A stretch of 64,000 bases of DNA, from the NCBI GenBank assembly GCA_964016885.1, contig OZ024765.1:14880001-14944000 (forward strand), given 5' to 3'. A model generated the notes under the pieces. That model was not told where the DNA came from, searched no databases, and saw only the letters and a list, made by a program, of their open reading frames with translations. Source of the stretch: Eledone cirrhosa. Lineage: Eukaryota. A program made the position numbers and the translations under genes. Shown here in pieces: positions 14,436-55,479 of this stretch (positions are counted from its first letter, which is position 1; every line of letters begins with the position of its first letter).

Positions 14436-14641
14436 AACGAAGGAAATGTGGTAAGGAACCAGGTGGACCATAACGCACCAAAGTACTCAATACTTAGGGT
14501 AGTAGAGTGGGTAATAGGAACGAGTAGGACCCCGACGGCTGAGCTCAAGCCGTTTCGACGGCTAATTCTGGACTGAATCTAGTCCAGAATTAGCCGTCGA
14601 AACGGCTTGAGCTCAGCCGTCGGGGTCCTACTCGTTCCTAT
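14436..14641. mobile_element. Family D fold-back element (long arm plus short inverted arm) in (TA)n
   Basis: Inverted repeat 14515-14640 centred on CTGGACTGAATCTAGTCCAG. Each arm carries GAAA-cggct..agccg-TC (hammerhead helix III plus GUC) but no CUGANGA. Confidence 0.9.
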
Positions 14642-15289
14642 ATATATATATATATATATATACACATATATAGAAATCTAAAGAAATATATATATATATA
14701 TATATAAATCTCTCCCGCTATATATATATAAATCTCTCTCTTTCTCTCTCTCTCTCTCTCTCGCTCTCTCTCTCTCTCTCTCTCTCTCTATATATATATA
14801 TATATATATATATATATATATATATATATATAAGCGGATGACATACGCCATCAAAGCTTCCCGTTATCTTGATTGGTTAAAATTATAAAAGATGGAACAC
14901 TTTGTCATTCACACATAAACTTTATACGTTTGAAAAGTAGTGAGAAATTTTCAATTGTATGTATTTCAAAAGATTTACTTCTTACCACACCTGTATGATA
15001 CTATTATCGATTATCTGTCAGTGATTGACTTTGACCAGATATACTCTACATTTAACGACAGACTCTCTGAAATATGACAGACACTTCGAAATAGGAAAGT
15101 GACTCTGAGAGACTTTGGTGACATTTCTCCAACATTTAGACCCGAAAAAGTCATTTTAGTTGTCAGTTTTCTCATTCCGTTAAATCTGTCTGTTCTAGTA
15201 ATTTCTATATTTACGACCAATTCATTTATAATATTACATCAAACACAATTGACACAGACTCATACGTAGATACACAAACACACACAGTA

Positions 15290-16495
15290 ATATATATATA
15301 TATATATATATATATATATATATATATATATATATATATATATATATATATATATATATATATATATATATATATATATATATATATATATATATATATA
15401 TATGTATATATCTGTGTGTGTGAGTGTAGGTTTGTGTGTCGATGTAAAAGTGTTTGTGTAAACATCTTTATTTATACACACACACACACACATATATATA
15501 TATATCATACATAGATAAATTATATATATATATATTTCATATATATAAATACATACATATATATATATACATATATATCATACATAGATAAATTATATAT
15601 GTATATATATATATACATATATATAAATACATACATATATATATATATATACATACATACATATATATACATTTATATACACATATATATATATATACAC
15701 ATATATATACATACATATATATAAATACATACATATATATATATATACATACATATATATAAATACATACATATATATATACATACATATATATATATAT
15801 ACGTACATACATATATATATATGCAAACATATATATATATATGTGTGGTGTATTATATGTATGTATATATACATACACATACATATATATACATATATAT
15901 ATATACATATATACATATATATATACACATATATACATATATATATACATATATATATACACATATATACATATATATATATACATATATATATACACAT
16001 ATATACATATATATATATACATATATATATATACATATATACATATATATATATACATACATATACATATACATATATATACATACATATATATACATAT
16101 ATATATATATACATATATATACATATATATATATATACATATATATACATATATATATATATACATATATATACATATATATATATATATATATACACAC
16201 ATATATATATATATACATATATATATATATATACATATATATATATATATACATACATATACATATATATATATATGCATATATATATACATATAAATAC
16301 ATATATATCTACATATATATACACATATATATACATACATATACACACATATATACATACACATATATATATACATATACATACATATACATATATACAT
16401 ACATATACACACATATATATACACACACACACACACACATATATATATACATACATACATATATATATATATATTTATATATATATATATACACT
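15290..16495. repeat. (TA)n/(TACA)n microsatellite block
   Basis: Direct inspection. Confidence 0.95.
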
Positions 16496-16734
16496 CAGTA
16501 GTCAAACCTCCACCACAACAAAAGCTCCATTATATCCTAACCCATTGATATAAACATCTCCTGATCTCTATCTCTATGAACCAGTCAGCTATGAGAGAGG
16601 AGGCATGTACTGTCTTCCATACTTCATCTATACAGCGTACCTCGCAGTTTGGACATTATCGAACAATGGAACTCTTAGAATAAATCATTGCAGCGTTCCC
16701 ATACTTCAAACTGCCATCATTGCTACTACTACTA

Positions 16735-17210
16735 GGGCGGTGAATTGGCAGTATCATTAGAGGGTTGGACGCCGTTCTTTCTAGCATAGTTACGTCCCTT
16801 TACAGTCTGAGTTCAAATCCCGCCGAGGTTGACTTTGCCTTTCATCCTTACGGGATCGATAAAATAAAGTACCAGTAATGCACTGGGTAATTGCTGGCCT
16901 TGGGCCTAAAGTAGAAACAATTATTGCTACTACTACCTTTATGATCTGAGTTCAAATCCCGCCGAGGTTGACTTTGCCTTTCATCCTTACGGGGTCGATA
17001 AAATAAAGTACCAGTAATGCACTGGGTAATTGCTGGCCTTGGGCCTAAAGTAGAAACAATTATTGCTACTACTACCTTTATGATCTGAGTTCAAATCCCG
17101 CAGAGGTTGACTTTGCCTTTCATCCTTACGGGGTCGATAAAATAAAGTACCAGTAATGCACTGGGTAATTGCTGGCCTTGTGCCTAAAGTAGAAACAATT
17201 ATTGCTACTA
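16735..17210 (+). mobile_element. tRNA-derived SINE whose 3' ~138 bp is triplicated, followed by a (TAC)n tail
   Basis: GGGCGGTGAATTGGCAG head; TCTGAGTTCAAATCCCGCMGAGGTTGACTTTGCC at ~16806, 16945 and 17083. Confidence 0.85.
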
Positions 17211-17419
17211 CTGATAATACTACTACCACCACTACTACTACTACTACTACTACTACTACTACTACTGAAGCTACAGTTACTATTTCCACTAATAGTACTA
17301 CTATTGCTACCATTTCTCCTACTACTACCACTACTAATTCTACTACTACTAATACTATTATTTCTACTACTACTACTACTACTACTACTACTATTGCTAC
17401 CTCTTCTACTACTACTTTT

Positions 17420-18875
17420 CGTGATCACGATCGCGAAGAGAAGGGGCCGAAATGGAGTTCCTTCGAAGGGTTTTTGGAGAAACGTTATTGGATAAAGTGC
17501 CTAACTCGGCGATCATGGAGTCGCTTAAGTTGAGCTGCTCTTCTCCTAATTGAGAGATCACAGCTCTGATCCTATGGACATGGGGTTAGAATGTCTCAGG
17601 AAAGAATCACTGGACAGATTTGTAGTTCAGAGATCAGAGAGTCACTCCAGGTAGAGCTACTACTTCTCTGAATTGAGAGATCACAGCTCTGATACTATGG
17701 ACATATGGTTAGAATGTCTCAGGAAAGAATCACTGGACAAATTTGTAGCTCAGAGATCAGAGAGTCACTCCAGGTAGAGCTACTACTTCTCTGAATTGAG
17801 AGATCACAGCTCTGATACTATGGACATGTGGTTAGAATGTCTCAGGAAAGAATCACTGGACAAATTTGTAGCTCAGAGATCAGAGAGTCACTCCAGGTAG
17901 AGCTACTACTTCTCTGAATTGAGAGATCACAGCTCTGATACTATGGACATATGGTTAGAATGTCTCAGGAAAGAATCACTGGACAAATTTGTAGCTCAGA
18001 GATCAGAGAGTCACTCCAGGTAGAGCTACTACTTCTCTGAATTGAGAGATCACAGCTCTGATACTATGGACATGTGGTTAGAATGTCTCAGGAAAGAATC
18101 ACTGGACAGATTTGTAGTTCGGAGATCAGAGAGTCACTCCAGGTAGAGCTGCTACTTCTCTGAATTGAGAGATCACAGCTCTGATCCTATGGACATTTGG
18201 TTAGAATGTCTCAGGAAAGAATCACTGGACAGATTTGTAGTTCAGAGATCAGAGAGTCACTCCAGGTAGAGCTACTACTTCTCTGAATTGAGAGATCACA
18301 GCTCTGATACTATGGACATGTGGTTAGAATGTCTCAGGAAAGAATCACTGGACAGATTTGTAGTTCGGAGATCGGAGAGTCACTCCAGGTAGAGCTGCTA
18401 CTTCTCCGAATTGAGAGATCACAGCTCTGATACTATGGACATGTGGTTAGAATGTCTCAGGAAAGAATCACTGGACAGATTTGTAGTTCGGAGATCAGAG
18501 AGTCACTCCAGGTCAAGCTGCTACTTCTCTGAATTGAGAGATCACAGCTCTGATAATATGAACATGTTTTTAGAATGTCTCAGGAAAGAATCACTGGACA
18601 GTTTTAAAAAAAAACAACAACCGGCAATACATCCAAGGGTAGACCACGAACAAGATGGTTGGATAACATCCATGAGCTGGGTTGGTTTGGTTTCTCTTGG
18701 GAATCCAGCAGGATCAATTGGAGACAGCTGCTTATAGCAGGACCCGATGGAAGGAGTGTTTGATGAGAAGAATGCAAAGAAGAAGAATAATGCAAAGAAG
18801 AAGAAGAAGAAGAAGAAGAAGAAGAAGAAGAAGAAGAAGAAAACCACGACGACGAAGAAGTCAAAGAAGAAAAAA
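17420..18875 (+). mobile_element. RTE-like LINE 3' fragment with an internal 123-bp tandem array (~8.7 copies) and a (GAA)n tail
   Basis: AEMEFLRRVFGETLLDKV...; the unit translates as IRESLQVELLLL*IERSQL*YYGHVVRMSQERI, followed by GRPRTRWLDNI and (GAA)n. Confidence 0.85.
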
Positions 18876-54466: not shown

Positions 54467-54625
54467 TGGGGTAACCACAGTAAGTAAGGTACTCAATACA
54501 TAGCAGAGTATAAATATTTAATATAGAAATGGCTTCTACAGGACTAGATCTGTTCCATTCGGGAAGACCTGATGATTTCTGCCGAATGAAACAGTTCTAT
54601 TCCTGTAGAAGCCACTTCTTTATTA
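54467..54625. mobile_element. Family K fold-back element with a hammerhead core (54569-54613)
   Basis: CTGATGA-tttctgccgaat-GAAA-cag..ctg-TA-gaagcc, preceded by an inverted copy of its own 3' half (54531-54562). Confidence 0.75.
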
Positions 54626-54654
54626 TATATATATATAGAAAAAGAGTGAACCGT

Positions 54655-54792
54655 GTTCTGATCTAGCTGTCGAAACGGCCACAACTCAGCCGTCGGGGTC
54701 CTGACCCTTTTCCTATTACTCAATCTCCTACTCTAAGTATTGAGTACTCTGGTGCGTTATGATCCACCTGGTATCTTACCACACACGCTTTC
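54655..54792 (+). mobile_element. Diverged family D long arm
   Basis: GTCGAAACGGCC..CTCAGCCGTCGGGGTCC..AAGTATTGAGTACTCTGGTGCGTTATG. Confidence 0.8.
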
Positions 54793-54804
54793 TTATATAT
54801 ATTT

Positions 54805-55040
54805 CTAAGGCGGCTAAAATTCCCGAGATCCATGGACGAGTTCTCTCCAGCGGTCTCTGTCCCTCATTATCGCTGCCATGTCCTGCGTCTCCAACAGACC
54901 AGTCTCTGTCCTTAGGGCATCAACACAGGTTAACCTTTGTCTCCATCTTCGAGTGTGTCCATGTAGGGGCTCCCACAGGAGCACTGAGTGCAGTGTCAAC
55001 TCTGGATGCCGGTGAGCATGTCCAGCTAACCTCAGTCACC
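54805..55040 (-). pseudogene. RTE-like LINE ORF 3' end fragment
   Basis: HSVLLWEPLHGHTRRWRQRLTCVDALRTETG...IMRDRDRWRELV aligns by eye with the 11889-12160 translation. Confidence 0.8.
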
Positions 55041-55279
55041 TCTCTCTCTATATATATCAATAATATATATATATATATACATATATATATATATATGTAT
55101 ATATACATATCAATACGTCTAAGTTTGGTAGAATGCGATATTCTGCCATGAGCATAGTGTTTCCAGAAATGAATAATTAAGGAAATTCAACCTGTCATTT
55201 TACTGTATAATATATATATATATATATATATATATATATATATATATATATATATATATATATATATATATATATATAT

Positions 55280-55479
55280 AACGAAGGAAATGTGGTAAGG
55301 AACCAGATGGACCATAACGCACCAAAGTACTCAATACTTAGGGTAGTAGAGTGGGTAATAGGAACAAGTAGGACCCCGATGTCTGAGCTCAAGCCGTTTG
55401 GACGGCTAATTCTGGACTAGTCCAGAATTAGCCGTCGAAACGGCTTGAGCTCAGCCGTCGGCGTCCTACTTGTTCCTAT
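55280..55479. mobile_element. Family D fold-back element
   Basis: Centre CTGGACTAGTCCAG; flanked by (TA)n on both sides. Confidence 0.9.

Follow-up and report, generated by a model that had tools for sequence, protein, structure and literature searches.

Inverted insertions carrying half a hammerhead in Eledone cirrhosa, and their possible origin by two-site priming of a Penelope-like element

Introduction

The window analysed here, a stretch of 64,000 nucleotides from Eledone cirrhosa (contig OZ024765.1, 14,880,001 to 14,944,000; positions below are those of the window), contains short palindromic insertions, termed family D, in which each arm holds what resembles the 3' half of a hammerhead ribozyme. 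How is such a palindrome made? The initial annotation, prepared from the sequence alone, proposed that a nascent cDNA snaps back on hammerhead helix II and copies itself until it rejoins a TA target by microhomology, and took this to be a recurrent, palindrome-making mode of integration. As a novelty this has to be given up, because palindromes at the inverted junctions of Penelope-like elements (PLEs), and self-priming as their proposed source, have already been published (Arkhipova et al. 2013, PMC3846280), and the layout of family D is itself not new. PLE insertions are described in PMC8557442 as containing a 5'-truncated copy in inverted orientation and a tail on only one end, for which 30-40 nt is reported, and that paper (Craig et al. 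2021) names the formation of PLE inverted repeats and the choice of microsatellites as an open question.

Results

Layout of the family D insertions

All four fold-backs reported initially were recovered, each of them ~190-200 bases long (all <210 bp), lying within TA repeats and containing no ORF. Copy 1 (14437-14640, minus strand) consists of a tailed arm at 14437-14574, with the hammerhead sense on the minus strand, a centre at 14575-14580 and a tail-less arm at 14581-14640; copy 2 (22972-23162, plus strand) has its tail-less arm at 22972-23025 and a tailed arm, from 23026, which reaches 5 nt further 5'; copy 3 (29996-30183, minus strand) is centred on GA at 30128-30129; and the centre of copy 4 (55281-55478, minus strand) is a perfect palindrome about TA at 55418-55419. 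The arms are head-to-head, and their measured lengths of 132-138 bp (tailed) and 54-60 bp (tail-less) agree with the first estimates of ~135 and ~60 bp; in copies 1-4, respectively, the paired arms are 60, 54, 54 and 60 bp and the unpaired centres 6, 5, 2 and 0 nt. Every copy has a one-sided tail of 77-78 nt and (TA)n on both flanks (4/4), and the tail-less arm always ends, as first described, in TTCCTAT running directly into (TA)n (4/4). In copy 1, the 77-nt tail (14437-14513, minus strand) spans the distance from the internal end (14514), at which loose ends of reads also fall, to the outer end (14437).

Four further D pieces were found: a tail-less arm alone (1812-1870, minus strand), which has the same TTCCTAT end next to (TA)n, is 5'-truncated in the same zone as the folded copies and is joined to non-TA sequence; a tailed arm alone (30481-30601, plus strand), 5'-truncated at CGAAAC; a miniature (49147-49185, no strand assigned), in which 20 nt of the tail-less end and 20 nt of the tail end stand head-to-head, without overlap of the arms; and a diverged sister (54638-54793, plus strand; 86% identity), which is non-folded and tailed and has no CUGANGA. 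Family D makes up 1.8% of the window, and all of its pieces there are single or inverted, with no head-to-tail tandem units of the retrozyme kind.

The centres differ among the copies, and the four centre strings are exactly those quoted initially. In copy 1 the centre matches the AATT palindrome that prevails in the reads, apart from two substitutions. Copy 3 has three subfamily variants, and copy 4 one variant, common to both arms and absent from copies 1-2; the arms also differ from each other within copies 3 and 4. Because four copies have four centres and the arms share copy-specific variants, D is probably a retro-insertion whose inverted arm is rebuilt at each event. A different explanation is that one or a few founder palindromes were amplified, either MITE-like or as a retrotransposed master, after which cruciform repair would have trimmed the centres and gene conversion would have evened out the arms. 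Long palindromes can undergo central deletions, and copies 2-4 have centres that could be shortened forms of the copy 1 centre; such a history would also account for the observation that none of the eight D pieces reaches CUGANGA. However, the termini are not mutual inverted repeats, one of them bearing a 77-nt tail without a partner, so that D lacks the paired ends of a MITE or foldback element (any target-site duplication would be hidden within (TA)n); single arms exist, as does a non-folded continuation in sequencing contigs; arm pairs carry different subfamily haplotypes; and an identical layout recurs in seven unrelated families (see below). We therefore consider amplification of a founder improbable.

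Evidence from raw reads

Family D is abundant in public RAD reads (0.2% of records), and (TA)n loose ends at 14514 are found in 3535 and 3077 reads of two raw-read runs, and in 91 contigs; sister-type reads likewise terminate at TTCCTA followed by TA. As the junction recurs in both runs, neither the family nor its tail-less end is a product of assembly. Palindromes are a known kind of amplification artefact, and a fold-back formed during assembly or library preparation would have the same shape, but in copies 3 and 4 the two arms are not identical to each other, and the TA junction at 14514 is present in two raw-read runs as well as in contigs, which leaves this origin very remote indeed.

Twelve of the 14 strand-switch joints listed among the reads (of 26 in all, 11 of them outside the listing) start one arm at 14564-14578 and stop the other at 14475-14537, and in six of those 12 the arm stops inside the tail; each joint is backed by 1-5 start sites, and probably represents a single locus. 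The depth of contigs across the arm overlap is not double that across the tail, so many D arms may be unpartnered. Reads also end in large numbers at 14567 and 14578, but these positions were rejected as turning points; both fall on AATT and are probably restriction cuts of the RAD library.

The hammerhead half and the search for a parent element

In copy 1, the tail-less arm contains a hammerhead-like 3' half (14599-14621, plus strand) made up of GAAA, a 6-bp helix III with a palindromic TGAGCTCA loop, and GTC, with cleavage predicted after 14621. The GAAA-helix III-NUH element of a type I hammerhead is present in D, and both arms carry GAAA-helix III-GUC, as had been noted, the exception being CAAA in one arm of copy 4; in the diverged sister (54664) the stem is preserved and the loop altered. 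CUGANGA is missing, again in line with the first reading, from all eight D pieces in the window, and full CTGANGA...GAAA motifs, absent from D, are present in families E, F, G, H, I and J, which have the same layout. A search of D against the Rfam hammerheads gave no match, with nothing at the gathering threshold; by E-value, there were only sub-threshold matches to generic hairpins or miRNAs. Helix III was not formed in single-sequence folding of the D arm alone (z −1.5). Having a helix III of 6 bp but lacking CUGANGA, the D copies are unable to form a ribozyme on their own.

The D arms terminate within a short interval on the 5' side of GAAA, 11-21 nt away from it, which would probably lie in helix II. 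Of the non-folded copies with a CUGANGA-like 5' half that were expected, the non-folded state was seen, in 66 contigs of read run X1 that continue past the turn zone, but neither the window nor the reads revealed a CUGANGA-bearing parent. A 12-nt motif of this continuation had five two-mismatch matches in the window, which is within chance (6/100 shuffles reached five). Searches for a D parent in metagenome, viral and genome contig collections returned 0 matches each, and a search for a PLE ORF gave 0 relevant Pfam matches among 104 reading frames of the window; one further frame (105 scanned) had only a below-cutoff match to RVT_1. As neither a PLE ORF nor a CUGANGA-bearing parent was found, both the identity of D as a PLE and the placing of its turn in helix II are inferred.

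These results might also suit integration from two starts by a non-PLE reverse transcriptase (RT), such as that of an RTE-like LINE working on retrozyme RNA; a LINE-like RT fragment adjoins family E, and 3' stem-loops serve as recognition signals of LINEs and SINEs (UnaL2, PMC1636434). Yet a one-sided tail, head-to-head inversion and a type I hammerhead are jointly reported as PLE hallmarks, and animal retrozymes are themselves derived from PLE pLTRs, according to the abstract of a preprint (bioRxiv 10.64898/2026.07.22.740005), so that we regard a non-PLE enzyme as a poor candidate, weaker even than a founder palindrome.

Comparator families and arm asymmetry

The same layout was found in seven other hammerhead-type families of the window, otherwise unrelated (E-K). 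Family E (10783-11341, plus strand) has CTGATGA on both arms and a long-loop tail hairpin at 11203; in family F (22026-22433, plus strand; also 37722-37996 and 43975-44120) the tail-less arm extends further 5' in all three insertions; and family I (25700-26124, minus strand; also 38410-38758) has the whole hammerhead on the tail-less arm only. Further comparators are families G (30946-31445, plus strand; also 43746-43958), J (54467-54625, minus strand; also 49333-49445) and K (22629-22841, minus strand; relatives at 7595-7782, 38335 and 8519). Tail lengths in these families are 52-145 nt. A turn inside helix II, suggested initially as the cause, finds no support as a general one: E, F (22028) and G (30950), and also H, turn upstream of an intact CUGANGA.

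Among 16 two-armed insertions, the tail-less arm reached further 5' in nine and the tailed arm in one, the remaining six being symmetric or indeterminate. This bias (9/10; sign test, p=0.021) comes from comparators picked by eye, with five other inverted pairs left out of the count, and among the D pieces of the window alone the score is 1 vs 1 (the miniature against copy 2). Lopsided palindromes can also come from post-insertion deletion, and the reciprocal deletion is invisible in the joint table.

The asymmetry bears directly on self-priming, in which a palindromic word within helix II, or close to it, would let a tail-primed cDNA fold and copy itself as far as the internal site. Copies 1, 3 and 4, symmetric or nearly so, are explained equally well in this way (in copy 2 the tailed arm is the longer, by the 5 nt mentioned), as is a haplotype common to both arms within a copy; the centres of E10783 and G30950 resemble short copies of neighbouring arm sequence, and the mechanism is close to the self-priming proposed for PLEs in PMC3846280. 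Self-priming offers, however, no direct route to tail-less sequence that is absent from the tailed arm, as seen in the 9/10 asymmetric insertions, the D miniature and the 12 read joints, and it leaves unexplained an end fixed beside a hairpin after many TA words have been passed. The initial supposition that self-copying accounts for all copies is not supported; we think it unlikely as the general mechanism, although it may still produce the symmetric ones while the rest come from double priming.

A fixed internal end beside a common hairpin

In copy 1, a hairpin in the tail (14483-14508, minus strand), composed of ACTC, an inner stem, a TT bulge and GAGTAC, begins 5 nt after the tail-less end. 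By exact matching, the tail-less end lies 4-7 nt before such a hairpin in 10/14 two-armed insertions and, with gapped alignment added, 4-9 nt before it in 13/14; H60175 ends ~20 nt before its hairpin. The pattern occurs 13 times, against 0.8 ± 0.85 in 200 shuffles (maximum 4), a comparison that is partly circular, as the pattern was drawn from these elements; a relaxed scan added four doubtful 3-bp matches (8126, 38884, 39739 and 39781). The inner pairs switch among families (T-A/C-G, A-T/G-C/G-T and so on), which constitutes covariation, and the outer A-T is replaced by G-C in one family. Pairs were counted by an anchored script; MAFFT left the stems out of register. Single-sequence folding gave mixed z-scores, from −0.8 to −4.4. 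Before they stop, 4-9 nt short of the common hairpin, the tail-less arms of E, F, G and I run through 10-37 TAT/ATA words, contrary to the original view that TA microhomology sets the end of the short arm. A literature search, with many subscription papers outside it, found no published description of the ACTC/GAGT hairpin or of a two-site model for PLEs.

Discussion

The head-to-head layout, the fixed internal end, the hairpin adjacent to it and the variable, asymmetric junctions are matters of observation. We consider it somewhat probable (roughly 60%) that the D copies are 5'-truncated stumps of the hammerhead-bearing end of a PLE, derived from two cDNAs that were primed at opposite nicks, at two fixed starts on the RNA, and then joined. 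A PLE protein (RT/GIY-YIG), acting in trans, would bind the bulged ACTC/GAGT hairpin and nick both strands of (TA)n; one nick would prime a cDNA ~5 nt 5' of the hairpin, giving the tail-less arm, and the other would prime a cDNA at the end of the tail, 77 nt downstream, giving the tailed arm. Because the arms share a haplotype, both cDNAs were probably templated by one RNA. In D, synthesis of both would often halt 11-21 nt short of GAAA, where it meets the 3' strand of a long helix II, and CUGANGA would therefore rarely be reached. The two like-sense ends might then pair through self-complementary words (AATT, TA) or be joined bluntly, an early stop of the tail-primed cDNA leading to a lopsided or non-overlapping inversion. 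Counted against this reading are the 77-nt tail, twice the 30-40 nt of PLEs, and the symmetry of three of the four named copies.

A wider proposal, which we offer tentatively and hold less likely than its application to D, is that the bulged hairpin (ACTC/variable stem/2-nt bulge/GAGT), covarying in at least six unrelated families, fixes the internal RT start of PLEs, that inverted repeats would arise by two-site twin priming with the internal site leading, rather than by self-priming, and that helix II would be the RT stop in D. In L1 twin priming, two target nicks prime two cDNAs, and microhomology joins them into an inversion whose halves overlap slightly or leave a small gap. The insertions described here differ in that the second start would sit at a set position next to an RNA hairpin, not at a chance A-tract, and in that the arms often overlap by 55-200 nt.

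The closest known systems are the inverted pLTR insertions of PLEs (PMC3846280, PMC8557442), which share with D the head-to-head arrangement, the junction palindrome, the one-sided tail and the AT-rich or (TA)n target; they have a hammerhead in the repeat, whereas D carries only its 3' half, is <210 bp, has no ORF and bears a tail of 77 nt (52-145 nt in the comparators) rather than 30-40 nt. The asymmetry seen here points to double priming, while self-priming was proposed in PMC3846280. In the part of Frangieh et al. (2024, PMC11167929) at hand, AT-rich DNA is nicked on both strands, and both are extended, by purified PLE protein, and RT starts at two sites that bound the tail; in this Anolis Poseidon system in vitro, initiation is at a stem-loop downstream of the hammerhead, as is proposed here. 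That part makes no link between the two RT starts and inverted insertions, and it describes the stem-loop as AC-rich. The minimal type I hammerheads of PLEs (Cervera and de la Pena 2014, PMC4209133) and of animal non-LTR retrozymes (bioRxiv 10.64898/2026.07.22.740005) resemble D in a palindromic loop III, a long helix II and a non-autonomous nature, but D has a 6-bp helix III, no CUGANGA, and dispersed inversions instead of tandem arrays. Pairs of such ribozymes lying 100-700 bp apart on opposite strands had already been reported from Schistosoma, a further point of resemblance.

Because the genome holds very many short insertions of several families, double priming and self-priming can be told apart by counting which arm is the longer and which words stand at the junctions. 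The common hairpin offers a defined RNA target for mutation in the in vitro PLE assay that already exists. D-type stumps would also be mis-annotated as MITEs or, given their sub-threshold miRNA matches, as microRNA hairpins.

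Structure of family D and comparable insertions

Four two-armed, folded copies of family D lie at 14437-14640, 22972-23162, 29996-30183 and 55281-55478 (copies 1-4); in each, a tail-less arm of 54-60 bp pairs with a tailed arm extending 77-78 nt beyond it, leaving unpaired centres of 6, 5, 2 and 0 nt, respectively, with TA at the middle of the copy 4 palindrome. The initial annotation described these copies accurately: its centre strings were matched, and all four copies are surrounded by (TA)n, end the tail-less arm in TTCCTAT and lack CTGANGA in the window sequence. Four further pieces bring the family to eight: a tail-less arm on its own (1812-1870), a solitary tailed arm (30481-30601), a miniature of 39 nt with no overlap between its arms (D mini, 49147-49185) and, at 54638-54793, a diverged sister that is not folded. 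All eight occupy 1,156 of 64,000 bases in a window that is AT-rich (32% GC), dense in microsatellites and animal-like in character.

According to Craig et al. 2021 (PMC8557442), Penelope-like elements (PLEs) typically carry a 5'-truncated copy in inverted orientation and, at one end, a tail of 30-40 bp; the origin of the inverted structures and the microsatellite bias are posed there as open questions. The D palindromes are real, and D, a putative PLE derivative, is most likely a new family within this known layout. A 2026 preprint (bioRxiv 10.64898/2026.07.22.740005) derives animal retrozymes from PLEs.

Seven further hammerhead-type families in the window (E-K; the hammerhead core of K is decayed) likewise form tailed/tail-less pairs in (TA)n. 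Turning within helix II had been proposed as a general mechanism, but E10783, F22028, G30950 and H60175 (family and position) turn upstream of a CTGANGA that is intact in both arms, and such turning is therefore a trait of D rather than of the mechanism. The F tail-less arms at 22026-22190 and 37728-37892 share an identical 5' stop (TCAACA), which may be the genuine 5' terminus of their source RNA. The centres of E (10983-10997) and G (31149-31156) resemble short templated copies of neighbouring arm sequence, a possible end-joining signature.

The tail-less end and the ACTC/GAGT hairpin

In 10 of 14 two-armed insertions, exact matching puts the tail-less end 4-7 nt before a hairpin; in the other four (G43748, J, K and H) the match halts early at substitutions, and gapped alignment gave 7, 9, 4 and ~20 nt. 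The hairpin opens with ACTC and closes with GAGT(A/G)C; between them lie an inner stem and a 2-nt bulge on the 3' side. Its loops span 2-63 nt, and one family has the variant GCTC/GAGC. Its inner pairs vary between families with pairing kept; the bulged hairpin, with covarying stems, marks the tail start in at least six unrelated hammerhead-type families. The pattern occurs 13 times in the window vs 0.8 ± 0.85 in 200 shuffles, an enrichment that is partly circular, although the matches at 3402 and 44053 played no part in defining it. Sites lie at 11203+, 3402-, 25828-, 31365+, 37913+, 38335+, 43876+, 44053-, 49405+, 54509- and 8519-. This shared, covarying hairpin is our most original lead; we found no published description of it in the literature searched, which was covered in part.

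The initial annotation had the tail-less end set by chance TA microhomology. TTCCTAT holds the first TAT in D, which makes D uninformative here, but the tail-less arms of E, F, G and I pass 14, 10-12, 37 and 35 TAT/ATA words, respectively, so that microhomology by itself is insufficient to set the end.

Family D in RAD reads

RAD records of organism A were compared with window positions 14427-14592, giving matches to 25,017 records out of 12.47 million in one run and to 25,718 out of 12.79 million in another. Loose (TA)n ends pile up at 14514, the internal end of the copy 1 tail (3535 and 3077 reads, plus 91 contigs), and the D tail-less end is therefore fixed over many loci; sister-type reads likewise run from TTCCTA into TA. 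Parts of the D sequence also occur in runs of ~12 coded organisms and one wastewater metagenome; of these, organisms A and B were aligned.

Non-folded continuation past 14578 was found in 66 contigs of read set X1 and two of X4. In X1, the consensus of this stretch (agreement 0.58, median 16 letters) could form imperfect pairs with the strand preceding GAAA, consistent with a long natural helix II; CUGANGA would lie outside the 30 letters given. Cervera and de la Pena 2014 (PMC4209133) describe a palindromic loop III, a long helix II and ribozyme pairs on opposite strands. Among 40 variants listed (119 more were recorded), none fell in GAAA or GTC, and those in the tail hairpin lay in the loop or bulge or produced a G-U pair.

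The read majority at the copy 1 turn is AAAT(T), from which we read the copy 1 centre as an AATT-centred palindrome bearing two substitutions. Reads end en masse at 14567 and 14578, both AATT sites where the library was probably cut, and are therefore unusable for counting symmetric turns.

Origin of the insertions

Copy 3 has three variants common to both arms and copy 4 has one. Since these variants are subfamily alleles frequent in the reads (15-40% of first-mate-plus reads in set X22), a single source molecule probably gave rise to each D palindrome, unless its arms underwent later conversion.

Frangieh et al. 2024 (PMC11167929) describe nicking and extension of both strands, with a tail bounded by two reverse transcriptase starts. 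We favour, at a probability of roughly 60%, double priming, in which two cDNAs from two fixed RNA starts are joined; this accounts for why the end is fixed, why arms occur singly and why joins are lopsided. No account applying twin priming to PLEs was found in our partial coverage of the literature.

Among 16 two-armed insertions, chosen by eye and leaving out five inverted pairs with no assignable tail (39005, 44766, 56033, 57126 and 62047), the tail-less arm is longer 5' in nine (F22028, F37722, F43975, G43748, I25702, I38412, J54469, K22629 and D mini) and the tailed arm in D copy 2 alone (p=0.021; 1 vs 1 within D), the others being symmetric or lacking a clear direction (D copies 1, 3 and 4, E, G30950 and H). 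Random post-insertion deletion should give asymmetry without direction. A tail-primed cDNA that snaps back and copies itself cannot exceed its template in length. Such self-priming was suggested for the palindrome-bearing inverted PLE junctions by Arkhipova et al. 2013 (PMC3846280); it is an unlikely source, though it may still make some symmetric copies, and it fits the comparators poorly. The snap-back with chance rejoining of the initial annotation, close to an already published proposal, shares that poor fit; two of its points hold, namely that each insertion probably rebuilds its inverted arm anew and that D comes to a stop close to helix II.

Among the 15 read joints listed of 26, each with only 1-5 start sites, 14 switch strand; in 12, one arm begins at 14564-14578 and its partner stops at 14475-14537, six of these stops being inside the tail. 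The tail-less arm in its whole length is matched by two 'side' values (61 and 55), which favours reading the joints as lopsided inversions, as double priming would give.

Other features of the window

Intact-looking CTGANGA...GAAA cores of further families occur at 2605+, 60745-, 44300+, 38141-, 7703-, 44569- and 38867+, none reaching the Rfam gathering score. At 38874-39749, an inverted hammerhead-bearing pair encloses a nested ~630-bp palindrome (39003-39634) set between (TA)n runs. A LINE-like reverse transcriptase fragment (11314-11913, minus strand; RVT_1 E=3.5e-6, under the curated cut-off) adjoins the tail of element E, and a ~123-bp tandem repeat occurs in opposite orientations, 91% alike, at 17540-18605 and 40568-41242.
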